Positions 1 through 16,846 of a DNA stretch of 32,000 bases are shown here, piece by piece. Origin of the DNA: Parasynechococcus marenigrum WH 8102 (GTDB taxonomy: Bacteria > Cyanobacteriota > Cyanobacteriia > PCC-6307 > Cyanobiaceae); the NCBI RefSeq assembly GCF_000195975.1, contig NC_005070.1:1980001-2012000 (forward strand), given 5' to 3'. Under the pieces are notes generated by a model. The model was given only the letters and a program-made list of their open reading frames with translations, did not search any database and was not told where the DNA came from. Position 1 is the first letter of the stretch; each line of letters begins with the position of its first letter. The position numbers and the translations under genes were made by a program.

Positions 1-1
1 C

Positions 2-268
2 CTGCGAGCCAAACTGCTGGAACAGGAGCAACGGGAGGCGGCGGCCCGGGAAAGCAGCGACCGTCGCGCCCAGGTGGGCAGCGGTGATCGCAGCGAAAAA
101 ATCCGCACATACAACTACAAAGACAACCGCACCACCGATCACCGGCTGGGCAGAAATTTTTCACTCGATCCGGTGCTGGATGGTCAGCTTGAGGATTTGA
201 TCGGCGCCTGCATCGCAGAAGAACAGCGGCAGAAACTGGAAGCCCTCAGCCAACAGAACGAGGACTGA
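2..268 (+). CDS. prfA: peptide chain release factor 1, C-terminal part (5' end outside window)
   Basis: Frame is open from position 2. Translation ..[34 protein letters not shown].. matches the conserved RF1 segment (GSGDRSE.IRTYN, TDHR). Stop at 266-268. Confidence 0.85.
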
Positions 269-275
269 ACTCAGC

Positions 276-800
276 TCAGGCTCCGATCACGTATTTGGCC
301 CATTCGCTGTGACGGCCGGAATGGATCTGGCGGGTGGCCTCAAAACTGAGGCTGCTCAGCGGACGGCGCGGCACCCGCATCAGCGGCATGTCCGCCTCCT
401 TCGGGGTGCGATTGCCCTTTCGCACATTGCAGCTCAGACAAGCGGTGGTCACGTTTTCCCAGGTGTCACCCCCACCTCGGCTGCGGGGCACCACATGGTC
501 GATTGACAGCGGTTCGTTGCGGCAGCCGCAGTACTGACAACTGTGGTTATCGCGATGAAACAGGTTGCGTCGGGTCAGCGGCAACTGACGGAAAGGCACC
601 CGGACGTATTGGCGCAAACGAATGACGGTCGGGAGGTGAGTACCACGCCGGATCTCTCGGGTGGAATCCTGCTCGAGACTCTCAGCCTTGCCCTTGAGCA
701 TCATCACCATGGCGCGCCGCCAGGTAGTGATATTCAGCGGCTCGTAGGACGCATTGAGAACGAGAACCTGGCCCATGCCAGCTCCCTGAATACGAGGCAT
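276..800 (-). CDS. HNH endonuclease family protein
   Basis: 174-aa ORF with an HNH/zinc motif: HRDNHSCQYCG..LSIDHVVPRSRGG..WENVTTACLSCNVRKGN. The start could instead be the internal Met at 776 (MGQVLVLN). Confidence 0.8.
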   Translation of the reverse strand: MPRIQGAGMGQVLVLNASYEPLNITTWRRAMVMMLKGKAESLEQDSTREIRRGTHLPTVIRLRQYVRVPFRQLPLTRRNLFHRDNHSCQYCGCRNEPLSIDHVVPRSRGGGDTWENVTTACLSCNVRKGNRTPKEADMPLMRVPRRPLSSLSFEATRQIHSGRHSEWAKYVIGA

Positions 801-850
801 GCTATCGATTCCACCAAGCCCCCCTTGGTAACGCTGAGCACCAAAGCCTC

Positions 851-1981
851 ATGTCGGAGCTAAGTCCACGCCAGCGCGCCTGGGTGGAGGTCTACCCCAC
901 GGCCATTGAGGCCAACTGCCGACTGCTGTGCCGTCAACTTGTCACCGGCTGCCAGCTGATGGCCGTGGTGAAAGCCGACGGCTATGGCCACGGCGCCGTG
1001 ACCGTGGCGAGGGCTTCCCTACGCGGCGGGGCATCCAGCCTTGGGGTGGCAACCCTTCAGGAAGGCCTGGAACTGCGGGATGCAGGCATCGAGGCGCCGG
1101 TTCTGATCCTCAGCGCCCTGCCAAGCCCGGAGGATCTCCGCCACTGCCTGGAGCAGCGGCTGATGCCGACCCTGAGCAGCCTGGATGAAGCGAACACGGC
1201 CGCTGCGGTGGCTGCTGAACGAGGAAACGAGCGCTTTCCTGTGCAGCTGAAACTCGATACAGGGATGGCCAGGCTCGGTGGCGAATGGCAGGAGGGAGCC
1301 CAGCTGGTGCAGTCCATCCGCACCCTGCCTCAGCTGGAACTAGTAGGCCTATACAGCCATCTCGCCTGTGCGGATGAGCTTGGCGATCAACTCACCCACC
1401 TGCAGCTGCAGCGCTTTCGATCCGTCATTGAAGCCCTGCCGGATGGCGGCAGCGGCCTGTGCTGCCATCTGGCCAATTCCGCCGGAACCCTGCAGGATCC
1501 CCGTTTGCATCTGGACATGGTGCGCGTTGGCCTCGCCTTGTACGGACAATCCCCAGCTGACCACCTCGGCCTCGATTTAGCACTACAGCCTGCCTTGGCG
1601 GTGAAGGCACGCGTCAGCCTTATTCGGGAGGTGCCGAGCGGTAGCGGCGTCAGCTACGGCCATCGCTTTGTCACCAGTCGTCCGTCACGCCTGGCGGTGA
1701 TCGCCATCGGTTATGCCGACGGCGTGGTCCGCGCACTGAGCGGCCGCATTGACGTCCTGCATCGTGGTCGCCGGGTGCCGCAGGTGGGCAATATCACCAT
1801 GGACCAGATCATCCTCGACGCCACCGATGTCGAGGAGCTGACGGTGGGAGACAACGTCACGCTGCTGGGGCAAGACGGAGATGACTGCATCCGTCCCCAG
1901 GACTGGAGCGCTCGCTGCGGCTCGATCCCCTGGGAGATTCTCTGTGGTTTCAAACACCGCCTGCCGCGGGTCGAGATCTGA
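851..1981 (+). CDS. alr: alanine racemase
   Basis: 376 aa with the PLP-lysine motif VVKADGYGHG. Later segments include VSYGHRF and GNITMDQIILD. Length is typical for Alr. Confidence 0.9.
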   Translation: MSELSPRQRAWVEVYPTAIEANCRLLCRQLVTGCQLMAVVKADGYGHGAVTVARASLRGGASSLGVATLQEGLELRDAGIEAPVLILSALPSPEDLRHCLEQRLMPTLSSLDEANTAAAVAAERGNERFPVQLKLDTGMARLGGEWQEGAQLVQSIRTLPQLELVGLYSHLACADELGDQLTHLQLQRFRSVIEALPDGGSGLCCHLANSAGTLQDPRLHLDMVRVGLALYGQSPADHLGLDLALQPALAVKARVSLIREVPSGSGVSYGHRFVTSRPSRLAVIAIGYADGVVRALSGRIDVLHRGRRVPQVGNITMDQIILDATDVEELTVGDNVTLLGQDGDDCIRPQDWSARCGSIPWEILCGFKHRLPRVEI

Positions 1982-2018
1982 CTGACCGTCCAACGCTTGG
2001 TACTCTGGTGGAGCCTCT

Positions 2019-2107
2019 GGAGAGGTGGCTGAGTGGTTGAAAGCGGCTCCCTGCTAAGGAGTTACAGGAGGCAACTTCTGTCGAGGGTTCGAATCCCTCC
2101 CTCTCCG
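2019..2107 (+). tRNA. tRNA-Ser (anticodon GCU), long variable arm, CCA not encoded
   Basis: Acceptor stem GGAGAGG (2019-2025) pairs with CCTCTCC (2100-2106), discriminator G2107. T arm is GAGGG-TTCGAAT-CCCTC (2083-2099). Anticodon loop is CTGCTAA. The 89-nt length fits a class II tRNA. Confidence 0.9.
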
Positions 2108-2109
2108 TT
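2089..2109 (+). repeat. attL core (tRNA 3' end): TCGAATCCCTCCCTCTCCGTT
   Basis: Direct repeat partner at 10053-10073. Confidence 0.65.
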
Positions 2110-2220
2110 TCAAGGTCTTCCCTGACCTTCCCATTTCTTCCCAAATCCACTGGGGTACAACGGGTCTTGCGAATTTGAGTTCCCAGGAATTCCCACTAAT
2201 TCTCCTGATTTGCCTCTGAA

Positions 2221-2264
2221 TTGGGGTAGGAATTGGGGTAGGAAAAACTTGACTGGGGTAGGAA
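2221..2264 (+). promoter_or_regulatory. three direct copies of (T)TGGGGTAGGAA, candidate integrase arm-type binding sites (attL arm)
   Basis: TTGGGGTAGGAA at 2221-2232 and 2233-2244 is a perfect tandem, and TGGGGTAGGAA recurs at 2254-2264. The same motif recurs next to attR. Confidence 0.55.
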
Positions 2265-2291
2265 GATATCTGTGAGGTCGGAATCCCTGAG

Positions 2292-3569
2292 ATGCCTCTT
2301 ACAGACTCGGGTGTGCGGTCTCTGACTGCGACCGACAAGATGCAGAAAAAGAGTGTCGGAAACTGCCTCTACGTGGTGGTAGAACCTTCGAAGAAGGGGG
2401 GTGGCAAGTCCTTTTACGGCGAGATCCGTTTCCCGCCAGGGGGTGGCGGACAAAAGGTCAGGGTCTGCATAGGTCCCTACGGCACTGCTCCAGGGCAATG
2501 GACCTTGAAGGCAGCAAAGGACGAATGGACCCGAATTCGCGCCTGGTCGCTGGAGACGGGCAGAGACCCCAGAGAACTGAATGGCAGGGGTAGGAAGCAA
2601 AACCAGGACCAAGGACCCTCCAAGACGCTTCAGGACGCCATAGACGGGTTCCTGAGCACCAAGACGTCGCTGAAGGAGTTCACCCTCACCAACTACCGCA
2701 GGCAACTGGAGAACCAGGTTCGGGAGTGCATTCCAGGGGCAACGCCACTTCGCGAACTGGAATGGGACAACGGCGGGAGGGAGAAGGTCGTTGCCCTGCG
2801 GGAATACATCGAGGACAGAGGCAGTTACGACCAGGCATTTCGGGTGCAGAAGGTCCTGGCACAGGCACTGGACTACGCAATCCTCCAGGGGTGGATGCGA
2901 CGCAATCAGAACCCAGCAACCAAGCAGAAGGGAGAAGAGAGCAAGCACGACCCGAAACACCATCCCCATATCCAGTGGGAACAGGTGCCAGAACTGCTGG
3001 AAGCAATTCACCTGAACCGCTGCTCAGGGCACGTTCAGTCGGTCATGGCACTGAAGCTTCTGCTCATGACCTTTCTCAGAGCAGGGGCACTTGCTCGTCT
3101 GAAGTGGAAGTGGATCAGCAGAAAGGAGAACCTCCTGGTGATTCCTGGAACCACTCCAGGACTGAAACGCACCAAGAAGACAGAAGACCTCCCACATCAC
3201 GTCCCGCTGACCAAGGAGATGAATGCACTGCTGAAGCAGGCAAAGCAGATGAATGGGCACCTGCCGTATGTCTTTGGTCCTGTCCGCGAGCAAAGCAGAT
3301 ATCCACATTTGGACCCCGAATCACCCAACAACCTCCTCAAGGGTTTGGGGTACAGAGAAGTGCTGCGTGCTCATGGTTGGAGGTCATTACCTCTGACCGC
3401 AGGACAAGAAGTTCTCAAGGCACCTCACGACATCATCCAAAGACAGATGGGGCACCTGATTGGCGACAAGGTCAGAAAGGCATATGACAAATCACTCATG
3501 CTGGAAGAACGCAGAGACTTCCTAGAGCAATGGTGCAAGTTATTGGTCAAAAATGGTTTGAAGATTTGA
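2292..3569 (+). CDS. int: site-specific tyrosine recombinase (P4-type phage integrase)
   Basis: 425 aa. The N-terminus LTDSGVRSL..GNCLYVVVEPSKKGGGKSFYGEIRF resembles the arm-binding domain of P4-like integrases. The C-terminus carries HGWRS..GH..KAYDKS (the H-x-x-R and Tyr region). The gene lies about 185 nt downstream of the tRNA. Confidence 0.9.
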   Translation: MPLTDSGVRSLTATDKMQKKSVGNCLYVVVEPSKKGGGKSFYGEIRFPPGGGGQKVRVCIGPYGTAPGQWTLKAAKDEWTRIRAWSLETGRDPRELNGRGRKQNQDQGPSKTLQDAIDGFLSTKTSLKEFTLTNYRRQLENQVRECIPGATPLRELEWDNGGREKVVALREYIEDRGSYDQAFRVQKVLAQALDYAILQGWMRRNQNPATKQKGEESKHDPKHHPHIQWEQVPELLEAIHLNRCSGHVQSVMALKLLLMTFLRAGALARLKWKWISRKENLLVIPGTTPGLKRTKKTEDLPHHVPLTKEMNALLKQAKQMNGHLPYVFGPVREQSRYPHLDPESPNNLLKGLGYREVLRAHGWRSLPLTAGQEVLKAPHDIIQRQMGHLIGDKVRKAYDKSLMLEERRDFLEQWCKLLVKNGLKI

Positions 3570-3580
3570 AGGCATAAAAA

Positions 3581-3610
3581 GCAGCAGGGTGACTAATCCT
3601 GCTGCCTTTA
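3581..3610 (+). terminator. hairpin after integrase
   Basis: GCAGCAGG (3581-3588) pairs with CCTGCTGC (3598-3605), a perfect 8-bp stem with a 9-nt loop, followed by CTTTA. Confidence 0.45.
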
Positions 3611-4065
3611 TGACCATTTTATGTACCATGACTAAAATACACCAACCCACACAACCAAAGGGTTGGCGAAGCGATTGGTTGCTTTGAATACTAACCGAGC
3701 ATTAAAGTCCGAAAACGCGGGAGTTTTATGGATCTGAATGCTAACTGAGTATGCGCCCAATCACTTCTTTCTAATTGTACTACAAAGTTGATAATAATGC
3801 AACGATCTTACTACATACGTAAATCAAACATTGGACTGTTAATCTGTTAATGTGTTATCAATTTCTGCATAAGGCGTCTTATTCCTGATGTCCTTGCAAA
3901 GTGGTCATTTCGGAAATGTCAATTTTATATGGTTGAGCGAGTGATCTAAGAGAGGTTGCTATCGATCGATTACCTTCTCAAGATCGCAATCTATATAAAT
4001 AAATACATATATGACATGGAATTATATGGAATTGTCCATATAAAATGGAATCAGTGACATGAATG

Positions 4066-4100
4066 AAAAAAGACCCCTCCTTGCCGAAAAAGGAGGGGTC
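4066..4100 (-). terminator. strong intrinsic-terminator-like hairpin oriented for the minus strand
   Basis: GACCCCTCCT (4072-4081) pairs with AGGAGGGGTC (4091-4100), a perfect 10 bp stem. A6 at 4066-4071 becomes the U-tract on the minus strand. There is no T-tract on the plus side. Confidence 0.45.
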
Positions 4101-4156
4101 TAAAAACACGAAAAATCTACCACCTTTATTTATAAGTTCTACACCCAAGAAGACAT

Positions 4157-4333
4157 ATGCCTTCTCGATCAAACGGAAAGAATATCAGCATTCATTTCAC
4201 AGAGGATAAACTTTCTCTGTTGGATGCCTTTGAAGAATATCACAAACAGAACTACATCAATCGTTCTGGATGGGTCAAGCAACATATGAAGAAAGCATTG
4301 ACCGAAAACAAAAGACAACTTGCATTTAGATGA
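4157..4333 (+). CDS. small ribbon-helix-helix (CopG/Arc-like) DNA-binding protein, 58 aa (below ORF-track cutoff)
   Basis: Translation is MPSRSNGKNISIHFTEDKLSLLDAFEEYHKQNYINRSGWVKQHMKKALTENKRQLAFR. It shows a beta-strand, helix, helix pattern with RSGW at the start of helix 2, as in RHH proteins. It is the first gene of a tightly packed operon. Confidence 0.55.
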   Translation: MPSRSNGKNISIHFTEDKLSLLDAFEEYHKQNYINRSGWVKQHMKKALTENKRQLAFR

Positions 4334-4334
4334 A

Positions 4335-4460
4335 ATGAAAACTTATCGAATACCAGGCGTTCACGCAGAGATGCTCAAGACTCTTGCACGCAAACTGCGA
4401 ATGAAGGAGGAAGAGGTCATCGAAGAGATGATTCAAGAAAGATTTAACCAGAAGAAGTGA
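4335..4460 (+). CDS. second small RHH-like protein, 41 aa
   Basis: Translation is MKTYRIPGVHAEMLKTLARKLRMKEEEVIEEMIQERFNQKK. It starts 1 nt after the previous stop, and the next ATG lies 1 nt after its own stop. Confidence 0.4.
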   Translation: MKTYRIPGVHAEMLKTLARKLRMKEEEVIEEMIQERFNQKK

Positions 4461-4461
4461 C

Positions 4462-4704
4462 ATGAATCACTTTTCTGATCAAAGACATTGGGCACCAACT
4501 CAGTTCAATCAGTACCAGCAGTGGGCAGAGATTCATCCCACTGACCCCAACATGTATCGGACATTCTTTTTGCAACGAGACCACCTCGCCAAGAAGGTTC
4601 GTATTCGTGGAGAAACCAACTGGGTCTATGGAGAGGTGCCATCAACGATTCGTGTGGCGCATCCAATGCATCTAGCAAAGATTCGTTCAGGCACCCTGTT
4701 CTAA
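4462..4704 (+). CDS. hypothetical protein, 80 aa
   Basis: ORF-track entry, positioned as if translationally coupled in the 4157-5336 operon. I recognise no motif. Confidence 0.5.
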   Translation: MNHFSDQRHWAPTQFNQYQQWAEIHPTDPNMYRTFFLQRDHLAKKVRIRGETNWVYGEVPSTIRVAHPMHLAKIRSGTLF

Positions 4705-4718
4705 AAAAGGAGATACAA

Positions 4719-5336
4719 ATGAAGTCCTATAAACAATTCGTGAGCGAGGCAAGAGAAGCAAAGGCATTTCTTGCTGGTGAACTACCTCTCAGTCAAAGAA
4801 AGAAAAAGAAGGTTGGTCAGAAGGTCATATCGAAGCGAAAGTCCAACGACCTGTCCCAACGGAATGGAGCATCAGGAATTTCGCCCTCGTCGAACCCGTC
4901 TCCAGAGGTCGATAACAGCAATGACATTCATATTGGTGGCAACTATCTGGGACGTCCCGACTACTCCGAATCCATAGACCCCCTGGTCGACGTGATGAAC
5001 CGTCTGTATCCCGTCCCTGAATCGAAATTGAGGGAGGATACGCAGTCGTCGTTCTATGTCTTTCGCACTGATACTCAGCAGGTCTTGGCGCGGGGAGTAG
5101 TCGGGTATGACAACGCCAAGCAACGTGCCTCCTACCTCCGCAAGAGACATGGTCTGAAGTTCGACCAGGTGCGTTTCAAGAAGGAGGGAGCGAAGACTGG
5201 TGGATCAAGACGCAGGACTGGTGGTCAGACCTTTAGAGGTGGTCGTGTTGACACTGCAAGAAACTACAACCCCTCCAAACGGGGTTACTTCAGAGGTGTC
5301 CATCATCCCGATGGATCCTATGGAGACCTGGATTAG
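4719..5336 (+). CDS. hypothetical protein, 205 aa, Lys-rich N-terminal part and Arg/Gly-rich C-terminal tail
   Basis: AAGGAG lies 6 nt upstream of the ATG. The tail reads GGSRRRTGGQTFRGGRVDTARNYNPSKRGYFRG. I recognise no family. Confidence 0.65.
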   Translation: MKSYKQFVSEAREAKAFLAGELPLSQRKKKKVGQKVISKRKSNDLSQRNGASGISPSSNPSPEVDNSNDIHIGGNYLGRPDYSESIDPLVDVMNRLYPVPESKLREDTQSSFYVFRTDTQQVLARGVVGYDNAKQRASYLRKRHGLKFDQVRFKKEGAKTGGSRRRTGGQTFRGGRVDTARNYNPSKRGYFRGVHHPDGSYGDLD

Positions 5337-5526
5337 GAGTCCTCAGAGGTCTCACTTTGCTGGATAGGACTTAGTAACCGCAAAGGTATTCGGAAACAAA
5401 GACGTCCGACTGTATTGACTGATCTTGCGATCCTTAAACCTTTTATGCTACTTATACTTGTATTAGTATTTATTTCCTCTTCTGACAAGGGTATGGATCT
5501 TTATTATAGGTTCGATAATAGTTGGT

Positions 5527-5727
5527 GTGATTGCCTGGATCTATGACGCTTATGTTTCTATGAAGAAGGATGAGGAGATCGCACGACTCAGAGATGAATT
5601 GACTCAGAGGGACTCAAAGTTGTCAAAACTCAAGGAACTAAAAATGTTGCTTGATGATGGAACGCTTAATGAGAATGAATTCGAGTTGATGAAATACGAA
5701 CTTATCAACAATGAACAAGAAGAATAA
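5527..5727 (+). CDS. SHOCT-domain small protein
   Basis: The C-terminus LKELKMLLDDGTLNENEFELMKYELI fits the SHOCT motif. The same frame is open from 5467 and there encodes a hydrophobic helix (VWIFIIGSIIVGVIAWIY) with no ATG/GTG/TTG start. Confidence 0.55.
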   Translation: MIAWIYDAYVSMKKDEEIARLRDELTQRDSKLSKLKELKMLLDDGTLNENEFELMKYELINNEQEE

Positions 5728-5773
5728 ATTCGTTGGATTTTGACTCTATATTGATCTTCTTGCCCTCTCTCTA

Positions 5774-5941
5774 TTAGGACTCTTCAGAGGTCTCTCTCTG
5801 GGGGATAGGACTTGAGTTGAGGTCTGACCGTCTTGACTCTTCCTCCACCTGCATCAACCTCTCCACAAGGTTGAGGGTGTCGTTGGGAGACCACTCCCCA
5901 TCGTCACCCCACTTGAGTGATGAGAGTTCAGTGGGGGACAT
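5774..5941 (-). CDS. possible small acidic protein, 55 aa
   Basis: My translation is MSPTELSSLKWGDDGEWSPNDTLNLVERLMQVEEESRRSDLNSSPIPQRETSEES. The opposite-strand 66-aa ORF (5817-6017) is Ser-rich and looks like its shadow. Evidence is weak. Confidence 0.25.
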   Translation of the reverse strand: MSPTELSSLKWGDDGEWSPNDTLNLVERLMQVEEESRRSDLNSSPIPQRETSEES

Positions 5942-6113
5942 CGATGGGAGTTCTGGGGCGTTGAACCTCAGGGGTCAGAAACCTCAAAAGTCCCCACTAA
6001 GACAGGACTTTCACTGAAGAAATTCTGAAGACTGGTTCGTTGTGATACCTATTGGGAGGGATTGACATTCACAGCGTCATGATCTGCTTGCCGTGCTTGT
6101 AAAAGATCGTCAT

Positions 6114-6434
6114 CTATTTTTGTTGAAAACTGTTGATCCGAGTATCTGTCATGTATTTAACCTCTTGGTAATATTCCAAAATCTCACTTTCGTGATCTTC
6201 TAGACAAGATATCAATGGTACTAATTTCTTATTCATCTGGTGATAAAACCTTAATCGATTGCGCTCTGCCTCAATTCCTGGGTAAGTCAATGCCATGCCA
6301 TTAAATCTTTTGATCTGATCCACCACGCTGTGAAATGATTTTGCATAAGAAGCACACGGATCGGGGACCAGAGGTCTCGCCATCGCAGGATTGGCAATCG
6401 AGAGTAAGGAAATGGCGACCAAAAGGTTTTTCAT
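6114..6434 (-). CDS. secreted hypothetical protein, 106 aa
   Basis: The N-terminus MKNLLVAISLLSIANPAMA looks like a signal peptide. The body is mixed and helical-looking. Confidence 0.6.
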   Translation of the reverse strand: MKNLLVAISLLSIANPAMARPLVPDPCASYAKSFHSVVDQIKRFNGMALTYPGIEAERNRLRFYHQMNKKLVPLISCLEDHESEILEYYQEVKYMTDTRINSFQQK

Positions 6435-6604
6435 TATTGCTCTTGATCGGGAACTCGACTCACTAGGGCGGCGAGAGATATTAATCCTCCGGTTATCACT
6501 ATTAGGGCACTCGCCTGGTCTCCCATCTTGGTAGTGCCGATCGCAAACATCAGACCTGATGATGCGAATAGAGCAGACCTAATCCACTTGTTTTTTATAT
6601 GCAT
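6434..6604 (-). CDS. small two-TM membrane protein, 56 aa (below cutoff)
   Basis: Translation is MHIKNKWIRSALFASSGLMFAIGTTKMGDQASALIVITGGLISLAALVSRVPDQEQ. Its TAA stop overlaps the ATG of the 106-aa gene (TAATG). Confidence 0.4.
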   Translation of the reverse strand: MHIKNKWIRSALFASSGLMFAIGTTKMGDQASALIVITGGLISLAALVSRVPDQEQ

Positions 6605-6633
6605 TTTCAAGAAATCAGAGGTTCATGATCTAA

Positions 6634-6726
6634 TCAGTGAGGAAGACCTTGCATCATCCAAGACTCATACACAAAGAAGAGAAGAAAGAAGAGGACGATT
6701 CCGATGACCAGTAGTTTTCCGTTCAT
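6634..6726 (-). CDS. possible 30-aa hydrophobic peptide
   Basis: Translation is MNGKLLVIGIVLFFLLFFVYESWMMQGLPH. It lies 29 nt upstream of the 56-aa gene on the same strand. Confidence 0.25.
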   Translation of the reverse strand: MNGKLLVIGIVLFFLLFFVYESWMMQGLPH

Positions 6727-6910
6727 GAGTAGTGTCTCTCGGACCGTGCTGATGTGATTTTGCCTTGCTTATCTGAATCCCCGACGGGAACTGGCATCGA
6801 CACAGCATCGATGCGTTGTGACCATAAACATGTTGTACTGGATTGTCTGTATCTTCTAACCCCAATCAAACGCTCCGATTTTGTGGATTTGGATAGGAGT
6901 TGTGAGGTCC

Positions 6911-7090
6911 TGGTAACGGATTAACGGATAACAGACCCAAACCAGAAATTAGGGGTGCTTCGGTGCCCCTATTTTGACGTCTGAGCGGTCTCTTGGCGTC
7001 CGATCAGGGCAGCAGACGTTGGACTGTTTCTGGTTGTCCACCAAACCCTTGTGGAGATGGCAAGCACAGATTAGGAAGCAGAGGAAGTAC
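6911..7090. repeat. copy A of a roughly 180-bp imperfect direct repeat (partner at 7915-8090)
   Basis: Shared blocks with copy B are TTAACGGAT.., CCCAAACCAGAA, the AGGGGTGC hairpin, GGGCGTCC, GGGCAGCAGACG.TGGA and CTGGTT.TC.ACCAA.CC. The offset between copies is exactly 1000 bp at the hairpin. Confidence 0.6.
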
Positions 7091-7134
7091 TGGTCAAAAC
7101 ACTGGGACTGGGACGAGAATATGGGTTCCGTGGG
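6949..7134 (-). pseudogene. start-less truncated paralogue of the Cys/His-rich ORF 7949-8197
   Basis: The minus frame reads ..CFDQYFLCFLICACHLHKGLVDNQKQSNVCCPDRTPRDRSDVKIGAPKHP*. The full copy reads ..TFLCLPIDSCHLHQGLVDNQRQSSVCCPDWTPKERSSTKKGVPEHP*. No start codon occurs after the upstream TGA. Confidence 0.35.
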
Positions 7135-7260
7135 TCACTTTTATATTACTAGATTGCTTTACAAGCGCTTCTGGTAGAGACCGGTCGCGACAGTGGTTCT
7201 GAACCCTTGAAGACTACAGATAAGCGCGTTACGACATGGGAGTAAGTTTTCTCTTCCCTC

Positions 7261-7626
7261 ATGCTTACTGGAACTGACCTGCTCACCAAGGTCAAAGAAC
7301 TTGGTGATGTCTCCAAGACCGAACTGGCAACTCAGTGCGGTTATGTTTCCAAGAAGAAGGATGGTTCTGACCGCGTCAACTTCACTGCCTTCTATGAGGC
7401 ACTTCTGGGTGCCAAGGGCGTTGAGTTGGGTTCTGGGGGTGCTGGTTTAGGCAAAGGCGGTCGGAAGTTGTCCTACATCGCCACGGTGCAGGGCAATGGC
7501 AACCTTCTGATCGGCAAGGCATACACCGCCTTGCTCGACCTGGAAACAGGCGATGAGTTTGAAATCAAACTGGGCAAGAAGGCAATTCGTCTGATCCCTG
7601 TGGGTGGTTCGGAGGAAGAAGATTGA
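7261..7626 (+). CDS. cyanobacterial AbrB-type (cyAbrB) transcriptional regulator
   Basis: 121 aa. The N-terminus is MLTGTDLLTKVKELGDVSKTELATQCGYVS. The C-terminal AbrB/SpoVT-like segment is NLLIGKAYTALLDLETGDEFEIKLGKKAIRLIP. This domain order is typical of the cyanobacterial AbrB clade. Confidence 0.75.
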   Translation: MLTGTDLLTKVKELGDVSKTELATQCGYVSKKKDGSDRVNFTAFYEALLGAKGVELGSGGAGLGKGGRKLSYIATVQGNGNLLIGKAYTALLDLETGDEFEIKLGKKAIRLIPVGGSEEED

Positions 7627-7652
7627 TTCCTGATTCACAGAAGACAGTCTTG

Positions 7653-7688
7653 CCCCTATGGTTCCCGTACGGTCCATGGGGATTTTTA
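7653..7688 (+). terminator. hairpin plus T-run after the cyAbrB gene
   Basis: CCCCTATGG (7653-7661) pairs with CCATGGGG (7674-7681) with one bulge, followed by ATTTTTA. Confidence 0.4.
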
Positions 7689-7695
7689 TGACCCG

Positions 7696-7887
7696 ATGCC
7701 GTATCACCCCTCCAAGGAGCATCTGGACAATCAGATTCCAAATGCTTTTAAGACGATCAACGGAGTGTTGAAGGATCTTCGAGCATCTACTGGTGCCGAT
7801 GAGAGGTACATCAGCATGATGTTGGATGCCATGGCACGGGACTGGGAGCAGAAAAGCGCCTCTCGTGATGGTTTTGGGTTTCGCTGA
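7696..7887 (+). CDS. hypothetical protein, 63 aa
   Basis: ORF-track entry directly downstream of cyAbrB and followed by the terminator at 7951-7975. No motif recognised. Confidence 0.4.
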   Translation: MPYHPSKEHLDNQIPNAFKTINGVLKDLRASTGADERYISMMLDAMARDWEQKSASRDGFGFR

Positions 7888-7914
7888 CATCCTTCATGAT
7901 CCTTCTACTCTTCA

Positions 7915-8090
7915 AGCGATTAACGGATTAACAGTCCCAAACCAGAACTCAGGGGTGCTCCGGTACCCCTTTTTTAGTGCTTGATCGCTCTTTGGGCGTC
8001 CAGTCGGGGCAGCAGACGCTGGATTGCCTCTGGTTATCGACCAATCCCTGATGGAGGTGGCAGGAATCGATGGGCAGACAAAGGAAGGTC
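7915..8090. repeat. copy B of the roughly 180-bp direct repeat
   Basis: See copy A (6911-7090). Confidence 0.6.
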
Positions 8091-8197
8091 GGGTGGTAGT
8101 TGAAATATCTGCAGTAGAGGCATACATGCTCACCGTGAACTGCAGGTTGAAGAAACCCATGAGGAAGAAACCTCCATTCCTCAGGTGGGTTGGTCAT
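7949..8197 (-). CDS. Cys/His-rich small protein, 82 aa
   Basis: Translation is MTNPPEEWRFLPHGFLQPAVHGEHVCLYCRYFNYHPTFLCLPIDSCHLHQGLVDNQRQSSVCCPDWTPKERSSTKKGVPEHP. The C-terminal half is conserved at protein level in repeat copy A. Confidence 0.45.
   Translation of the reverse strand: MTNPPEEWRFLPHGFLQPAVHGEHVCLYCRYFNYHPTFLCLPIDSCHLHQGLVDNQRQSSVCCPDWTPKERSSTKKGVPEHP
7951..7975 (+). terminator. intrinsic terminator (hairpin plus T5)
   Basis: AGGGGTGC-TCCG-GTACCCCT followed by TTTTT. The paralogous hairpin at 6951-6975 is AGGGGTGC-TTCG-GTGCCCCT-ATTTT. Confidence 0.55.
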
Positions 8198-8418
8198 GGA
8201 CTATCCCGCGACTGGACCCAGTACTAATATATCTGTACCAACTGCTTAGCAACCTAATAGGGGTCATAGATGAGTCTCGTGTCCAGTCTCAAAAAAGGCA
8301 GAAATTGAGAACCCCTGCAAAAACTGGATTTCTTGGTTGATCTTCTGATGAAAGACCAACCAAACTCATTTATCAACATTGATCACTTCCCTTCGTCCGC
8401 CTGCCTCAGTTTCTTGAG

Positions 8419-8562
8419 ATGACAGGACTCAGCACCAGCACCATCTATCGCTGGATGACGGACGGGACCTTCCCAAAGCAAATCCAGTTGGGTTCTCGCT
8501 CTGTCGTCTGGAACGAACGGGACGTCATCGACTGGATGAACGCACAAAATGCAAACACCTAA
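8419..8562 (+). CDS. AlpA-family (MerR-like HTH) excisionase/regulator, 47 aa from the ATG
   Basis: The segment ..LPQFLEMTGLSTSTIYRWMTDGTFPKQIQLGSRSVVWNERDVIDWMNAQ matches the AlpA/Xis pattern (tGlS.sTiYr.m..G.FP....G.r.v.W...ev..W). The frame is open from 8383, but the only canonical start is ATG 8419. Confidence 0.65.
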   Translation: MTGLSTSTIYRWMTDGTFPKQIQLGSRSVVWNERDVIDWMNAQNANT

Positions 8563-8649
8563 AAGTGTGTTGATCGAGGACTTCTGACCCTCATTAAACA
8601 TAGGTGGGGAACCAGGAGACAGAAAACTCCCTGTTTTTACTAGACTAAT

Positions 8650-8693
8650 GGGGGGGGGGGAAATCTCATGTCCTGAGATCAATCTCCCCCCCC
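8650..8693. repeat. G11 ... C8 homopolymer-flanked inverted repeat
   Basis: G run at 8650-8660, then ATCTCA/TGAGAT inner palindrome, then C run at 8686-8693. Confidence 0.6.
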
Positions 8694-8797
8694 GAAGTAA
8701 AAAATTATGTTGTGTTGCTTTGCACATATGCGTCACTTTGTTATAGATGATACGCGTTTTACTGTTTTGAAGAGGACAATAAAAAGAAAACTTCCCG

Positions 8798-8965
8798 ATG
8801 CAAGAAATAAAACTGGGCAATTCGTGCAAACGATTACACACGTATGAGTGCGGGGAAAGGCACTTTGTGCGTATCACAAGGGGTGTCTGCCTTGAGTTTG
8901 ATAAGCAATGGGATGCAGAGATGACTTTGCTTAATCTACGTAAGTGCGGTCTTATATCCGTATGA
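8798..8965 (+). CDS. possible Cys-containing mini-protein, 55 aa (below cutoff)
   Basis: Translation is MQEIKLGNSCKRLHTYECGERHFVRITRGVCLEFDKQWDAEMTLLNLRKCGLISV. It is the only sizeable ORF in the plus-strand unit that ends at the 9089-9120 terminator. Confidence 0.3.
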   Translation: MQEIKLGNSCKRLHTYECGERHFVRITRGVCLEFDKQWDAEMTLLNLRKCGLISV

Positions 8966-9088
8966 ATCCGTATAACAACCCTGTTGATAAAGCATCAGAG
9001 GATTGACCCACAGAGAAAGTAATCAAGGAAGACATACAAAAAACCCCTAACTAAATACCCACAGCACTTTCTCCCCAGGGCAGTCAGA

Positions 9089-9120
9089 AGGCAGGGCGTT
9101 CACGCGTCCTGCCTTTTTTT
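9089..9120 (+). terminator. strong intrinsic terminator
   Basis: AGGCAGG..GCG-TTCA-CGC..CCTGCCT stem followed by T7 (9114-9120). Confidence 0.7.
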
Positions 9121-9152
9121 GTGCCTACTCGTCAGTGCCCCATCCATGCATG

Positions 9153-9179
9153 AAAAAAGGAGCAGCACGAATCTGCTCC
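9153..9179 (-). terminator. minus-strand intrinsic terminator (T3)
   Basis: On the plus strand, A6 (9153-9158) is followed by GGAGCAG-CACGAAT-CTGCTCC. Read on the minus strand this is a hairpin followed by U6. Confidence 0.55.
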
Positions 9180-9272
9180 TTCAGAGGGGTATGTGTCGAA
9201 CCAGGAGGTTCTCGGGAACCACCACAATCGCCCACTTAAGTGCTGTGTCGTTAGTGCTGTTCACAAATTGCC

Positions 9273-9297
9273 AAAAAAAGATCGTCCTCTCGGACGA
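9273..9297 (-). terminator. minus-strand intrinsic terminator (T2)
   Basis: On the plus strand, A7 (9273-9279) is followed by TCGTCC-TCTC-GGACGA. On the minus strand the hairpin is followed by TC and T7. Confidence 0.5.
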
Positions 9298-9426
9298 CCC
9301 ATCTCGACGCAAGGAAAGTCTTCCTTCTTCCGATGCCTCGGCAGGTATCAGGTACTACTCGATCTAGGAGGTTCTTGCCGACTCAGTGGATCCGACCCGT
9401 GCTCTTCCTCTCTGATTGCTGAGCAC

Positions 9427-9452
9427 AAAAAAGGGCAGGTCCCACCCCGCCC
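9427..9452 (-). terminator. minus-strand terminator-like hairpin (T1), probably ending the 96-aa gene transcript
   Basis: On the plus strand, A6 (9427-9432) is followed by GGGCAGG-TCCCAC-CCCGCCC, a 7-bp stem with one mismatch. Confidence 0.4.
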
Positions 9453-9573
9453 CAGTTCGACGCATTGAGGGAACTGGTCCCTGTGAAAGAACTATTCCCC
9501 ATGACGCCGCACTTGGAAGTAGTGAGAAATACTTAGATCATTGCCATAGGCAGAGCAAATCAGTTCTGAGTGA

Positions 9574-9864
9574 TCAGGGTTCTGCTGAGGCACCCCATAA
9601 CGGTTCTGTCCGCTTCCACCCCATGGACTTCAGGTTGCGCCAGATGGTTTCAGCGTCCTCCTGAGGGACGTGCCTGCGTTCCTTCAGCAGTGGTGGTTGT
9701 CCGTCAGGCATTGCCATTCCACGGTCCATGAACACCTTCGGGTCACGGACCCATGCCTTGTCATCCCGATGAAACCGCCACACCCAATTGGTGCCAGGGT
9801 CGACCAACCATCCTTCACGCATGATCAAGGAGTAGTAGTACACCTGTTCTAAACAGTCATGCAC
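9574..9864 (-). CDS. hypothetical protein, 96 aa (Trp-rich)
   Basis: ORF-track entry MHDCLEQVYYYSLIMREGWLVDPGTNWVWRFHRDDKAWVRD... It reminds me of small picocyanobacteria-restricted island proteins, but I cannot name the family with confidence. Confidence 0.5.
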   Translation of the reverse strand: MHDCLEQVYYYSLIMREGWLVDPGTNWVWRFHRDDKAWVRDPKVFMDRGMAMPDGQPPLLKERRHVPQEDAETIWRNLKSMGWKRTEPLWGASAEP

Positions 9865-9931
9865 GACGTCGGCAACAGGTGCTGCTGAAAGTCCCGCACT
9901 TGGGACGTCCGATACCTCTTATATGCAGCAG

Positions 9932-9990
9932 TTCCTACCCCCTCTTCTCACGTCTTCCCACTCGTTTTGGGGTAGGAAATGGGGCAGGAA
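9932..9990. promoter_or_regulatory. three copies of GGGGTAGGAA-type motif next to attR (one inverted, two direct)
   Basis: TTCCTACCCC at 9932-9941 is the inverted copy. TTGGGGTAGGAA is at 9967-9978 and ATGGGGCAGGAA at 9979-9990. Confidence 0.55.
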
Positions 9991-10052
9991 ATTCGCCAAA
10001 AGAGGGTCTTTTTCTTCCCACGTCTAGTCATACCAACTCATTTGGGGGTTAC

Positions 10053-10073
10053 TCGAATGACTCCCTCTCCGTT
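10053..10073 (+). repeat. attR core: TCGAATGACTCCCTCTCCGTT
   Basis: 19/21 identical to 2089-2109. The upstream GGGTT(ACT)CGAAT continues the resemblance to the tRNA T-arm. Confidence 0.65.
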
Positions 10074-10320
10074 GAACACCAGAGCTGGCTCCTGATTGGA
10101 GATCCCAGCTCTGGCCCTGGCCTTCAACAACTTTCGGCAGAATTGGAGGTGGCGCCTCAGTGCTTAATGAGGCTGGAGCAGGCGAGCAGCAGGCAGAACC
10201 AACCGAAAGACCGCACGGCTTGATATGAATGAATTTCACTCAACAAAACCACAACTAATGTTGGGATTTATTGCTTAAGGAAGTCGTGAGCAGCTCCTGG
10301 GCCCTTGGTGCCGTTGCTGA

Positions 10321-10677
10321 ACTCCGCAAGAAACTGAATCTGCCTCTCGTGTCGAAGAACGCCGAAAGAACTACAACTGCGACATCACATATGTAACAAA
10401 TAGCGAGCTGGGCTTCGACTATTTGTGCGACAACATGGCTCAAGATCCGAAGCATCTAGTACAACGGCAACCCCACTATTGCATTATCGACGAAGTCGAC
10501 TCAATTCTGATCGGCGAGGCCAGAACTCCATTAATCATTTCCGGAAAAGTGGAGAAGCCAAAGCAAAAGTTCTCACTAGCTGCATTCATTTCTACAAAGC
10601 TTGAGCATGGTCAAGACAGTGACAATGACGAATTCGAAGCCTTTGGAGATATGGCCAAACCATCAGTGCACTGTTAG
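10321..10677 (+). pseudogene. secA: secA gene fragment (internal piece of the preprotein translocase ATPase)
   Basis: The open frame reads ..[57 protein letters not shown].., the SecA NBD1 Walker-B (DEVD) region. Only about 118 codons remain, bounded by stops, with no N- or C-terminal parts. Confidence 0.75.
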
Positions 10678-10728
10678 CGTTAAAAACGTCTCTACATATC
10701 GACAGTGTTAGCAACTTCATTTTAAATC

Positions 10729-11715
10729 ATGGCCCCATCTCCCGAATCCATTCTGTTTGAATCGCTCTTCTTTCAATGGGCGCAAGTCAACTGCGAGTCT
10801 TTTGCTGTCAACGAAGAGCAAGTCCTGATTGAGGAGGGAGTCGCCACACCTGACCTTTTTCTTCTTCTCGAAGGCGGAGCCACGGTGCGCACAGCACTCG
10901 AAACCGAAGACGCTTCTCAGGATTCCGTCGACCTAGCTGAACTTTCCCCCGGCCAATTTGTTGGCGAGATGTCCCTGCTGGAAGACCGCCTTCCGGTCGC
11001 CACCGTCATCGCACAGCCGAACAGTCGATGGATCCGTGTTCGCTACAGCGACTTGATCGCCGCCATTGCGAGTGACAAAGCACTGGCTTCGAGTACCTAT
11101 CAGGTGTTTGCAGGAAAATTGGCCCTACAACTGAGTCGTCAGAACGCATTCATCCACCGATGGCCAGGGCAAGACATCGAACCACTGCGCAAAGTTCTGT
11201 TGGTATTCGGTGAATGGAATGAACTGGATGTGGCCTGGCTGGAAAAGACCGGGGAAAAGGTTGACCTATCAACCGGCACAGCATTCATCAAGGAAGGTGA
11301 GGCCCTTGATCGTCTTTACATCGTTCTCGATGGCGAAGCCGAGGTGATGATCAACGTGGAAGGCGCATCTACCACAGTGGGGAGCTCAAGGCGCGGGGAA
11401 ATTCTGGGGGAGATGAGCTTTCTCAACAGCGACGAACAAGCCACTGCAACCGTTCAAGCCCGCGAGGCCATGGTCTTGCTGGCTGTGGATAAGACGAGTA
11501 TCCGCCAACAGCTGACGGTTGACTTGGCCTTTGCTGAACGTTTTTACCGTTCTCTCGCTGTTCTGCTCTCCCATCGCTGTCGAGATCAAATGATGTCGCG
11601 GGGGATGGCAGCCCAGGCCTTGGCGCTTGAAGAACTGGATCTGACGACTCTGGGCATTGTGAGCACAGCCGGGCGACGATTTGAGTGGCTTTGCTCGGAG
11701 GTCTCAAAACGTTGA
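10729..11715 (+). CDS. tandem cyclic-nucleotide-binding-domain protein (probably the N-terminal module of the downstream ABC exporter)
   Basis: Two cNMP-binding signatures are present, FVGEMSLLEDRLPVATVIA and ILGEMSFLNSDEQATATVQA. It overlaps the next ORF by 31 nt. Confidence 0.8.
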   Translation: MAPSPESILFESLFFQWAQVNCESFAVNEEQVLIEEGVATPDLFLLLEGGATVRTALETEDASQDSVDLAELSPGQFVGEMSLLEDRLPVATVIAQPNSRWIRVRYSDLIAAIASDKALASSTYQVFAGKLALQLSRQNAFIHRWPGQDIEPLRKVLLVFGEWNELDVAWLEKTGEKVDLSTGTAFIKEGEALDRLYIVLDGEAEVMINVEGASTTVGSSRRGEILGEMSFLNSDEQATATVQAREAMVLLAVDKTSIRQQLTVDLAFAERFYRSLAVLLSHRCRDQMMSRGMAAQALALEELDLTTLGIVSTAGRRFEWLCSEVSKR

Positions 11716-12902
11716 AGAGCCTGAAAGCCCTGCGCGGCCTTCTCAAGACCTCTGCAACACAAACCACTCAGGACCTTGTACGCCTGCTCTGGCGACATGG
11801 ATGGCCCAGCCGTGTTGTTGCTTTGCCACGCGATTGGTGGGATCAAGCCAGCGAGCTCGAAGGGGGGCTGTGGATTGCAGCAGATCAGCAAAGCCCAGCG
11901 CAGTGGTGGCTGGTCCAGCAACGCCAAGGCGCAATTCAGATTCATGCGTTAACCGCAGCAGAGGGATCGACCAGCCATCCCCAAGACTTCCAGCCTCAGG
12001 CCGTGAGCCTCTGGCCAGCCATGGCCTTCAGCACACCAGCACGCTGGAGCGACCTGCAACGCCAACTCAAACCGTTCGCTGCGATCCGAAGCGCCATGCC
12101 GGCGGCGTTTCTCCGCGCCGGAACTTGGCTGATGTTGCCGATATTGCTGATCGCCTTGCTGGGGCAGCTCATTAGCGTTCCAGTGGCTCTGTTCTTGGCA
12201 GGCCTCAGCCTGTTGTTCGGCCAGGTTCTCGATAACCAATGGCATCGGCTCTGGCTCAACCGCAGTGCACGGCAGCGCGCGGGTTTGGGCCTCGTGGGCA
12301 TGCAGAAAGTGCTCCGCCTACAGCTTCCCGTGATCCGGACTCTGGGCGGTGCAGGTGCAACCGCTTTGGCTCTTTCCCTTCAGCAGATCGGTCATCAACT
12401 CCCCCTCGCGATCGGTCGATTGCTACCCGCGATCACGCTGTTCCTATTCAGCAATCTGGCCTTATGGATATGGCGTCCCCCACTCGGTGCCGTCAGCTTG
12501 TTCGGATGCGGCCTTTGGTTGCTTGCAAACCATGGTTTATCGGAACGCTCTCAAAGACAACGCAACCAACAACTCCCCCATCAAGGTCTCGCACTGCTCC
12601 GCAGCCAAGAACTAATTGAAAACTGTTCCACGTTGCGTCTTGCAAAAGCAGAACAACAGGCACTGAACTGGTGGATCGAGCCCGAACGTGCAGCCGAACA
12701 GCAGCAACCATGGCTGGATTGGCTCAGCGCACTGCAGAGCTGGAGCACCGTCTTACTGGCCACCATGCTGATCATGGCTGCCATCGTGATCGCGCCGGTC
12801 CGTAGCGACCAATGGCTAGCCTTCAATTTAGTTGGCATTCAATTCGCCACGATCCGCGAACTCGGGCAGGCGGGCAGGCGTTCAAGACCTGGAGAGACCT
12901 AA
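11685..12902 (+). pseudogene. ABC exporter transmembrane-domain fragment (frame broken at its 3' end by an 8-bp duplication)
   Basis: 405-aa ORF with multiple hydrophobic helices, for example WLMLPILLIALLGQLISVPVALFLAGLSLLFG. It ends at ..GQAGRRSRPGET* immediately after the GGGCAGGC GGGCAGGC tandem at 12864-12879. Confidence 0.7.
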
Positions 12903-13702: not shown

Positions 13703-13706
13703 ACCG

Positions 13707-15929: not shown

Positions 15930-16137
15930 CCTCGATAAAATGATTTAGCGCATACGGATGAACGGCAACAAACCAATTCGGCAATCATTTATCACTTCAA
16001 ACAGACCGCAAAATGCGGCACGCCAAGCAATCAAATGCAGCCTGAAGCATAAGCTTCGAGAGCCGCCCGACAGCCTTGAAGAAAACAGGTGATTGCACAC
16101 ATATTCCACCTCACGAAATCACAACAATGATCACTGC

Positions 16138-16510: not shown

Positions 16511-16846
16511 AAGAGGATCCCTACACGTTCAACAATCGCACTATACAAGCATCTTTCAGGCGCAAACAAGTCATCAACATTCGACATCAAAGATGAATGC
16601 TTCAACAGCCGGTGAGGACGCCGGGAGAAGCAACAAGGGCAGGAGGTTTAAAAATCAACCTCAACTCACCCAATCAGGGCAAGGCCAAGTCAACCCATCA
16701 TTCAACAAATCAGTCAACCAATTCGCATGCACGTTGTTCAGTTCAGACCCTGCTTCGCAACAGCACGGTCGATTCCGTTGGGAGGAGTCAGAGAGCCATC
16801 CCCTCCGTTCCAAACCATCCATTCATTCCTTAGCTTGGCTTCAGCG

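Follow-up and report, generated by a model that had tools for sequence, protein, structure and literature searches.

Marine picocyanobacteria, to our knowledge, have no plasmids, conjugation or classical prophages, and because these are lacking, gene exchange in this group is poorly understood. This report concerns a 32-kb stretch of the genome of Parasynechococcus marenigrum WH 8102, a Synechococcus of clade III (contig NC_005070.1, positions 1,980,001 to 2,012,000; hereafter the window) and, within it, the segment 2097-10073, which is very probably a 7.96-kb site-specific integrative element that entered the 3' end of a tRNA-Ser(GCU) gene by means of a tyrosine recombinase and is non-autonomous in replication and transfer. 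The locus is a compact system, with base-precise left and right attachment sites (attL and attR), predicted junctions of the excised circle (attP) and of the repaired chromosome (attB), an apparently intact integrase and candidate arm-type sites. Excision, control by the AbrB-like, RHH-like and AlpA-family proteins, and the roles of two proteins of 80 and 205 amino acids (aa) are open to direct testing at this locus, and natural variants are at hand for comparison, namely, a strain with a frameshifted integrase, one whose core site is occupied by another element and one with a tandem array.

The closest described systems are the tycheposons of Prochlorococcus, which are defined by a lineage-specific, inward-facing integrase, by hallmark genes for replication and mobility, and by cargo that serves adaptation or acts against phages, and which target seven tRNAs, tRNA-Ser(GCU) not being one of them (bioRxiv 10.1101/2020.12.28.424599). 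The window element shares with tycheposons and with the cryptic elements of Prochlorococcus the insertion in a tRNA 3' end, the flanking partial tRNA copy and the inward-facing, tRNA-proximal tyrosine integrase; all these elements are a few kilobases long, pile up into larger islands and have integrases that cluster according to the tRNA targeted. Unlike tycheposons, the element possesses its own backbone of small open reading frames (ORFs) and an AbrB-like regulator, and resides in Synechococcus. For this genus, Grebert et al. (2022, PMC8995045) described tycheposon-like insertions that lie upstream of the phycobilisome rod region, at tRNA-Phe(GAA), and another integrase family is found at tRNA-Phe and tRNA-Cys (PMC10187409). 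The tRNA-Phe(GAA) insertions are similarly linked to a tRNA, carry a tyrosine recombinase and a tRNA remnant at the far end, and are iterated, but the tRNA and the gene content are different, and the recombinase is usually distal whereas here it is tRNA-proximal. Two relatives of the window element, L107 and L108, share the distal arrangement, with AlpA and the integrase at the distal end of an element that is again bounded by the core sequence described below.

More remote are the enterobacterial islands P4 and CP4-57, which likewise combine an AlpA-family excisionase/regulator, a tRNA or tmRNA 3'-end target and arm-type sites in attP (candidates in the window element); their integrase plan, in which a catalytic and a central domain are joined by an arm-binding N-terminal domain that is recorded for members of the integrase family, may be shared as well. 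Here, however, the integrase shows no more than 27% identity to proteobacterial phage integrases, and P4-like primase or capsid-size genes are absent. The phage satellites of the phage-inducible chromosomal island (PICI) type and their minimalist variants (PICMI) are comparable in being very small, in combining an integrase gene with alpA and few other genes, and in their marine hosts, but these satellites include a replication module, usually accompanied by a packaging gene, and can be obtained from virions; nothing of this kind is seen here. No description of an element at tRNA-Ser(GCU) in Synechococcus was found in the literature searched.

Boundaries, integrase and attachment sites

The target gene is the sole tRNA in the window (ARAGORN: tRNA-Ser(gct)) and is 99% identical to the tRNA of the Prochlorococcus locus L003. 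The 21-mer TCGAATCCCTCCCTCTCCGTT that covers its 3' end recurs once, at the far end of the element, with 19 of the 21 positions identical (2 mismatches); there is no third copy in the 32-kb window, and 100 shuffles of the sequence yielded 0 matches, so that the repeat, with two occurrences versus none expected, is not a frequent word there. The identical 13-bp core within this repeat begins with the final 3 nt of the T-stem, runs through the 3' acceptor strand and the discriminator base, and extends 2 nt beyond. To the left of the core, attR reads GGGGGTTACTCGAATGA where the tRNA reads GAGGGTTCGAATCC, and GGTTACTCGAATGA, directly before the attR core, is an imperfect copy of the T-arm with a 3-nt insertion. 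The attR of the metagenome locus L083 is GAATGACTCCCTCTCCGTT, the same as in the window, and the window, L083 and the element of Synechococcus BOUM118 share the variant GAATGA to the left of the attR core, which implies that it is borne by the element (as its P arm) rather than being decayed host sequence. The 13-mer also bounds the relatives in BOUM118, L083 and L107. The predicted attP junction is ...TTACTCGAATGACTCCCTCTCCGTTTCAAGGTCTTCC... (diagnostic k-mer TTACTCGAATGACTCCCTCTCCGTTTCAAGGTCTTCCCTG), and that of attB is ...GGTTCGAATCCCTCCCTCTCCGTTGAACACCAGAGC... (diagnostic k-mer GGTTCGAATCCCTCCCTCTCCGTTGAACACCAGAGCTGG).

The boundaries are delineated to the base by comparison with other strains, including YX04-3, which was found via the exact beta-lactamase-like protein encoded downstream (16847-17734, minus strand). 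The alignment of the window with the 182-kb contig L095 of strain YX04-3 (99.06% identity) runs leftward from position 27735 and breaks off exactly at 10061, the base with which the attR 13-mer starts; on the tRNA side, the YX04-3 sequence (L100) shows no difference as far as ...CTCCGTT, where the core ends at 2109, and diverges beyond it. Between these breakpoints, at the same tRNA, YX04-3 carries a different, ~13-kb element that encodes AlpA, a 47%-identical integrase, DUF4379, a helicase-like protein, a ParB-methyltransferase and a resolvase. Thus, two strains that are 99% identical differ by a clean swap of 2110-10060, which is what site-specific recombination at the 13-mer predicts. In BOUM118, the element is bounded by exact 13-mers at positions 7438 and 14630 of its contig (L102), with the same P and P' flanks. 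A site empty of the whole island is found in a more distant Synechococcus metagenome-assembled genome (L002), where alr and tRNA-Ser are followed directly by the beta-lactamase-like gene and the alignment covers window positions 1-2112 and 16866-19583. The Prochlorococcus locus L003 is likewise empty of the island; there, as in L002, the beta-lactamase-like gene lies directly after tRNA-Ser or within about 600 bp of it, and in both loci NlpC/P60 and GT2 genes follow. A search of genome contigs with Alr recovered only three picocyanobacterial relatives, the closest of which, L001, ends at the tRNA.

The window strain is present in ~90 public sequencing runs, such as SRR10229891 and the KIEF18-1 samples, and several metagenome or culture contigs are 99.97-100% identical to the window. 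Strain WH8103 (LN847356.1, PMC4559175) encodes the exact Alr protein of the window and is 99.1% identical to window positions 1-11998. In this comparison (locus L089), the element (window 2001-10000) shows ~1.1% differences, versus 0.2-0.4% in the flanks, which could be due to faster evolution or to recombination with other copies.

The integrase ORF starts 183 nt past the end of the tRNA and scores 30.1 bits against the Pfam family Phage_integrase, PF00589 (cut-off 27.1), whereas the match to PF22022 (Phage_int_M), at 22.2 bits, is under the cut-off of 27, and that to NCBIfam NF007246/PRK09692, at 65 bits, is far under the cut-off of 434. The arm-binding domain PF13356 is recorded for many close homologues; the window integrase itself has no match to it at E<=0.01. 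In an alignment of 34 relatives (42-96% identity), R263, H361, R364, H388 and Y398 are invariant, and a candidate catalytic lysine lies in the GLKRTKK motif, outside the conserved columns of this alignment. The ratio of nonsynonymous to synonymous substitution rates (dN/dS) is 0.15 in comparison with the BOUM118 copy. The matches among phages are all proteobacterial phage integrases. Relatives at 44-55% identity occupy the same locus between alr/tRNA-Ser(GCU) and the beta-lactamase-like gene.

The decamer GGGGTAGGAA, with at most 1 mismatch, occurs eight times in the window versus 1.2 expected, and six of the eight copies are clustered at the two ends of the element (Table 1). A further (seventh) exact copy is located inside the integrase gene, at 2587-2596, and is either a chance match or an extra binding site. 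Related elements contain tandem motifs of their own at equivalent positions: GTTGGTAAA on both sides in YX04-3, three copies of GTTATGGGAT and two of GTGTGGGGGAT in BOUM118, two of GTGTTGTGGGA in L083 and four of TGTTGGTATA in A18-40. This arrangement suggests that the tandem decamers are candidate arm-type integrase sites; in the circularized element, the clusters from both ends would flank attP. The integrase would bind the decamers through its N-terminal arm-binding domain, strand exchange would take place inside the 13-mer core, and the AlpA-family protein is a plausible directionality factor for excision. The RHH-like ORFs together with the AbrB-like protein might keep the element silent, possibly via the TTAAC(G/A)GATTAACAG motifs at 3833, 6919 and 7919. 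As to the exit from the cell, we would guess that vesicles or phage particles carry the element passively, a route already proposed for picocyanobacterial elements.

These results agree with an earlier sequence-only reading of this DNA, which had proposed an integrative element in the 3' end of tRNA-Ser(GCU), delimited by the 19/21 repeat with its T-arm resemblance and 3-nt indel, and a tyrosine integrase starting about 185 nt after the tRNA: the repeat, the indel and the integrase all hold, with the catalytic set retained, and the site comparison shows L002 empty for the whole island and YX04-3 differently occupied. The element is well supported as a real, precisely delimited, classical integrative element, that is, a genomic island of an ordinary kind; what appears modestly new is a conserved backbone of small proteins that is exchanged between integrase/att modules.

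The conserved backbone and the element family

The tiny ORFs between the integrase and attR had been read as cargo. Most of them (the RHH-like, 46-, 80- and 205-aa, AbrB-like, Cys-rich and AlpA ORFs) form, instead, a conserved backbone under purifying selection, and the SHOCT-like and 63-aa ORFs are variable additions. The dN/dS values calculated against the BOUM118 and A18-40 copies are low in the annotated frames (Table 1), as opposed to near 1, or stop codons, in the frames overlapping the small ORFs, so that these tiny ORFs are real genes. The three small ORFs on the minus strand between 5774 and 6610 are conserved as well (dN/dS 0.15-0.33), as is the AbrB-like protein (81-95% aa identity in related elements, dN/dS 0.10-0.17). 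The homologues of the 205-aa protein, which include genes in Synechococcus BOUM118 and A18-40, are all unnamed; the protein has a conserved C-terminal domain with the signature FYIFRTD...YNPSKRG...DLD. The cassette segment 5372-5772 is absent from the BOUM118 element.

The backbone is found in different genomic surroundings. In BOUM118, the whole element recurs (85% aa identity for the integrase, 72-95% for the small ORFs) as the second unit of a tandem array, directly adjoining the beta-lactamase-like gene. This backbone (74-91% aa identity) is found in A18-40 and two metagenome contigs as well, there combined with a 43%-identical or decayed integrase and adjoining tRNA-Ser(CGA), downstream of comEC. 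Homologues of the 80-aa/205-aa pair, at ~50% identity, are also present in the otherwise different YX04-3 element. The occurrence of the backbone in three junction contexts indicates that the family has moved repeatedly, and it would do so by exchanging integrase/att modules around the conserved backbone. The tandem arrays of BOUM118 (L102 1-7450) and A18-40 (L103 16463-20439) are such that the backbone-type element shares its tRNA with a second, neighbouring element, which carries either a ParB-methyltransferase and a resolvase or a further integrase together with AlpA and a resolvase.

Family assignments within the element are few. Among the families named in the sequence-only reading, the AbrB-like and AlpA proteins are confirmed through Pfam, whereas both RHH assignments lack any hidden Markov model match and SHOCT, at 21.1 bits versus a cut-off of 27, falls short; the DUF1651 protein (88.7 bits) is an addition to that list. 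The stated absence of replication, capsid, transfer and transposase genes held up, with no match to replication, capsid, packaging, transfer, transposase or defence families in the Pfam, NCBIfam, PHROGs and PADLOC scans, and no nutrient-uptake or defence cargo was recognized by family match in the element (Pfam and PADLOC). Searches with the backbone ORFs gave nothing usable in Pfam at E<=5, NCBIfam, PHROGs or PADLOC. AlphaFold2 models of the 205-aa protein (predicted local distance difference test, pLDDT, 62) and of the 80-aa protein (pLDDT 79.6 in the best model, <50 in the four others) produced no Foldseek match in PDB at E<=0.001. The element DNA had no match in 50,697 phage records or 72,556 plasmids, nor had the 205-aa protein a match among the same phage records, and profiles of the integrase and of the 205-aa protein found no relatives in IMG/VR.

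It is conceivable, on a tentative estimate, that the backbone set, inclusive of the ~180-nt repeats described below, represents an undescribed family of minimalist elements of marine Synechococcus, in which swaps of integrase/att modules reach both tRNA-Ser(GCU) and tRNA-Ser(CGA), and in which the 80-aa/205-aa pair, for which no fold was recognized, provides a new mobility function. If so, the pair could, for instance, initiate replication at the conserved AT-rich block next to it, or hijack vesicle export or a helper phage.

Mobility and alternative readings

Several observations weigh against an element that is still fully mobile along the lines proposed above. The WH8103 integrase has a 1-nt deletion (at window position 2911) and its element lacks exactly one 12-bp arm repeat near 9932-9990, and the integrases of L104 and L105 are split, so that members of the family apparently often decay in place. 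The AlpA protein matches only positions 12-51 of the winged-helix domain PF05930, and no ATG, GTG or TTG is present that would supply the first ~12 residues of the family. The exact element-type att sequence GAATGACTCCCTCTCCGTT has 0 matches in IMG/VR, where no excision junction was found either, and none of the 20 contigs read that encode the exact DUF1651 protein (10 places among the matches listed), all collinear with the window, contains a circular attP or a repaired attB. Because PDB sequence searches with the integrase and with the family profile returned no match, the catalytic assignment rests on invariance within the family and the Pfam match. The decamers are putative arm sites, and the functions given above for the AlpA, RHH and AbrB proteins are putative too. 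The odds that the window element can currently be excised seem about even. These signs of decay, the non-canonical start of AlpA and the missing excision products, together with a divergence from WH8103 that is ~5 times greater in the element than in the flanks, are also what one would expect of a fossil, that is, the immobile, decaying product of a single past integration, with the repeats left as a scar and some of the small genes, such as that for the AbrB-like protein, used by the host. Such a history is possible although we consider it doubtful, given that the window integrase is full length with an intact catalytic set and a dN/dS of 0.15, that both arm-repeat clusters and both 13-bp cores are intact, and that the same backbone occurs in three different junction contexts. 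It is hardly credible that the repeat arose by chance and that homologous recombination shaped the low-GC region as an ordinary variable island: the exact core is indeed short, at 13 bp, but the shuffles, the reuse of the same core in BOUM118, L083 and L107, and breakpoints falling at the core to the base in two independent comparisons (YX04-3 and BOUM118) all speak for site-specific integration.

Two further readings accept the integration but assign the element to a known class. Its architecture recalls tycheposons, as the sequence-only reading had noted: the element is adjacent to a tRNA, its inward-facing tyrosine integrase lies at the tRNA-proximal end directly after attL, it measures 8 kb, its host is a marine picocyanobacterium, one tRNA has received repeated insertions, and the relatives of the integrase track the tRNA site. 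This likeness of architecture stands, but the hallmark primase, helicase and polymerase families of the published definition were not found with Pfam, NCBIfam and PHROGs profiles, tRNA-Ser(GCU) is outside the seven Prochlorococcus target tRNAs, and no nutrient or phage-interference cargo is recognizable, so membership among the tycheposons as strictly defined by Hackl et al. is rather improbable, and a better fit is with the 'cryptic' elements, with integrase and excisionase only, that these authors set aside. Slightly less probable still is a minimalist phage satellite of the PICI/PICMI type, excised upon induction by a helper cyanophage, with the non-coding block as origin or pac site and the 80- and 205-aa proteins hijacking the helper. 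The combination of an integrase, AlpA and small regulators in a small element, the conserved AT-rich block with three ATGGAAT copies beside the integrase gene, and the presence of the 80-aa/205-aa pair in the otherwise different YX04-3 element would suit such a satellite; Pfam and PHROGs scans, however, detected no primase/rep, terS or capsid gene, neither the element DNA nor the 205-aa protein has relatives in the 50,697 phage records, the integrase and 205-aa families are not in IMG/VR, and the fold searches were uninformative. A non-autonomous integrative element, as described above, thus remains the favoured reading.

The composite island and minor features

The element has a G+C content (GC) of 0.482 in 2110-10060, compared with 0.626 in the core genome to the left and 0.617 in that to the right. 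The hand counts of the sequence-only reading (18/60 G+C for 3781-3840 and 41/60 for 1021-1080) are exact, and the composition does drop between the repeats, to 48.2%, but the low GC runs past 10073 to about 16850, so that the DNA adjoining the 8-kb unit on the right belongs to the island rather than to the core genome. Since the L002 alignment skips 2113-16865, this stretch is an insertion relative to L002. From these comparisons, the 7.96-kb element is the module nearest the tRNA in a composite island of 14.7 kb (2110-16865). This island would have been built by successive insertions at tRNA-Ser(GCU), the 7.96-kb element being the youngest module. The site between alr/tRNA-Ser(GCU) and the beta-lactamase-like gene is a recurrent insertion hotspot where putative bacteriocin-export genes have accumulated.

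Table 1. Coordinates of the features of the element and of the adjoining island (window positions; aa, amino acids; L102, BOUM118; L103, A18-40)
Feature	Position	Strand	Remarks
tRNA-Ser(GCU), integration target, intact after insertion	2018-2108	+	ARAGORN; Rfam tRNA, 62.9 bits
attL core CTCCCTCTCCGTT	2097-2109	+	13 bp, within 21-mer 2089-2109
Three direct GGGGTAGGAA repeats, candidate P' arm-type integrase sites	2223-2264	+	114-146 nt right of core
Tyrosine integrase, 425 aa, facing into element	2292-3569	+	Pfam PF00589; PHROG_1, 2.9e-40
Conserved AT-rich non-coding block, integrase gene to first small ORF	3570-4156		Integrase terminator hairpin 3581-3610
Inverted TTAAC(A/G)GATTAACAG motif in conserved block	3833-3851
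Three ATGGAAT copies in conserved block	4016-4051		Starts 4016, 4026, 4045; just before hairpin
Strong hairpin in conserved block	4071-4101		12-bp stem
58-aa ORF, RHH-like by sequence pattern only, backbone	4157-4333	+	72-84% aa identity in L102-L105; dN/dS 0.10
46-aa ORF, backbone	4320-4460	+	82-89% aa identity in L102 and L103; dN/dS 0.08-0.12
80-aa ORF, most constrained backbone gene	4462-4704	+	dN/dS 0.05; 52% homologue in YX04-3 element
205-aa ORF, backbone	4719-5336	+	dN/dS 0.11-0.20; 96 homologues
Variable cassette	5332-5813	+	41-nt direct repeats 5332-5372 and 5773-5813 flank SHOCT-like 66-aa ORF 5527-5727
55-aa ORF	5774-5941	minus
106-aa ORF, signal-peptide-like N-terminus	6114-6434	minus
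58-aa hydrophobic ORF	6434-6610	minus
Copy A of ~180-nt repeat	6915-7100	+	Opens with TAACGGATTAACAG, then UUCG-loop terminator-like hairpin
AbrB-like regulator, 121 aa	7261-7626	+	PF14250, 91.6 bits (cut-off 25); between two repeat copies
63-aa ORF, element-specific, variable	7696-7887	+	No homologue in related loci, no family match
Copy B of ~180-nt repeat	7915-8100		Minus-strand entry 7915-8197; overlapped by Cys-rich ORF
Cys-rich 82-aa ORF	7949-8197	minus	Intact in L102 and L103; dN/dS 0.25
AlpA-family excisionase/regulator, 47 aa	8419-8562	+	PF05930, 62.6 bits (cut-off 21); PHROG excisionase; dN/dS 0.12
55-aa ORF	8798-8965	+	95% aa identity in BOUM118; dN/dS 0.08
DUF1651 protein, 96 aa	9574-9864	minus	PF07864, 88.7 bits; dN/dS 0.13
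Three GGGG(T/C)AGGAA repeats (one inverted, one with mismatch), candidate P arm-type sites	9932-9990		71-120 nt left of core
attR core CTCCCTCTCCGTT	10061-10073	+	Identical 13 bp, within 21-mer 10053-10073
Second island module, outside element	10074-16343	+	secA fragment, cNMP-binding, split NHLP ABC2, C39-peptidase ABC1
secA fragment, 84 aa of SecA DEAD motor domain	10423-10677		350 nt right of attR; also in YX04-3
cNMP (cyclic nucleotide monophosphate)-binding, TIGR03896	10729-11715		511 bits (cut-off 161)
NHLP ABC2, split into two ORFs	11685-12902 and 12812-13702		29.6 and 386 bits (cut-off 709)
C39-peptidase ABC1	13707-15929		538 bits (cut-off 853)
Response-regulator receiver-domain N-terminal remnant	16280-16510	minus	Homology to metagenome contig L098 breaks at 16344
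Candidate degenerate outermost att remnant CCATCCCCTCCGTTCCA	16796-16812	+	35 nt from core beta-lactamase-like gene

The second module is common to the window and YX04-3, at 99% identity, and is absent from L002 and BOUM118. Its genes at 10729-15929 probably make up a bacteriocin export set of the NHLP type, a system that comprises TIGR03896, TIGR03797 and TIGR03796 proteins; genes for a precursor or a maturase are missing from the vicinity. The ABC2 gene, split in the window, is a single gene encoding 667-669 aa in YX04-3, WH8103 and L112. In place of the response-regulator remnant, L098 contains a complete regulator followed by genes for a rotamase, a cNMP-ABC fusion and an HlyD-like protein, that is, another exporter cluster. 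At the right end of the island, the sequence CCATCCCCTCCGTTCCA resembles the tRNA end, with a local alignment score of 24 compared with a null of 15.7 +/- 2.5 (maximum 25), and its CTCCGTT|CC(A/G) junction agrees with the native flank of L002 and BOUM118. The sequence could plausibly be the oldest, outermost att scar of the composite island, but the case is weak, and because the score is only marginally above the null, this third att copy is retained as a candidate only.

Among the non-coding parts of the element, the block 3570-4156 aligns with the metagenome loci L087, L082 and L081, the downstream content of which differs; the ATGGAAT triplet is kept in L087 and L082 and looks iteron-like. 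Both copies of the ~180-nt repeat open with a tandem TTAAC(G/A)GA motif, ATTAACGGATTAACAG (6919-6937 and 7919-7937), which recurs inverted at 3833-3851 and might serve as operator to a regulator that the element itself encodes, with the AbrB-like and RHH-like proteins as the candidates (target form TTAACGGATTAACAG). The favoured reading of the repeat itself is a terminator plus an operator-like unit that overlaps the 3' part of the Cys-rich ORF. A structured RNA was considered and rejected, given an unfavourable RNAalifold covariation term (+0.98) and no Rfam match.

Two more segments vary among close relatives. At 8650-8694, a G12 tract is followed 24 nt on by a C9 tract, and the length of the G tract changes by +1 in L088 and L094 and by -5 in WH8103; such differences among near-identical strains reflect either hypervariability or homopolymer sequencing error. 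The 438-bp non-coding segment 9136-9573 is absent from the BOUM118 element and from the metagenome contig L113 but present in the A18-40 element at 93% identity, the highest of any segment in that comparison, and holds an inverted copy of the arm of the preceding terminator (9108-9124/9423-9439).

The metagenome locus L087 adds a further gene set next to a related integrase. Beside the C-terminal part of this integrase, positions 1234-6771 contain a cluster for a ribosomally synthesized and post-translationally modified peptide, with a 147-aa NHLP-like precursor (GG motif), a 507-aa radical-SAM/SPASM protein and a 353-aa ORF, followed by an inverted N-terminal integrase remnant and a cNMP-binding bacteriocin-transport protein.

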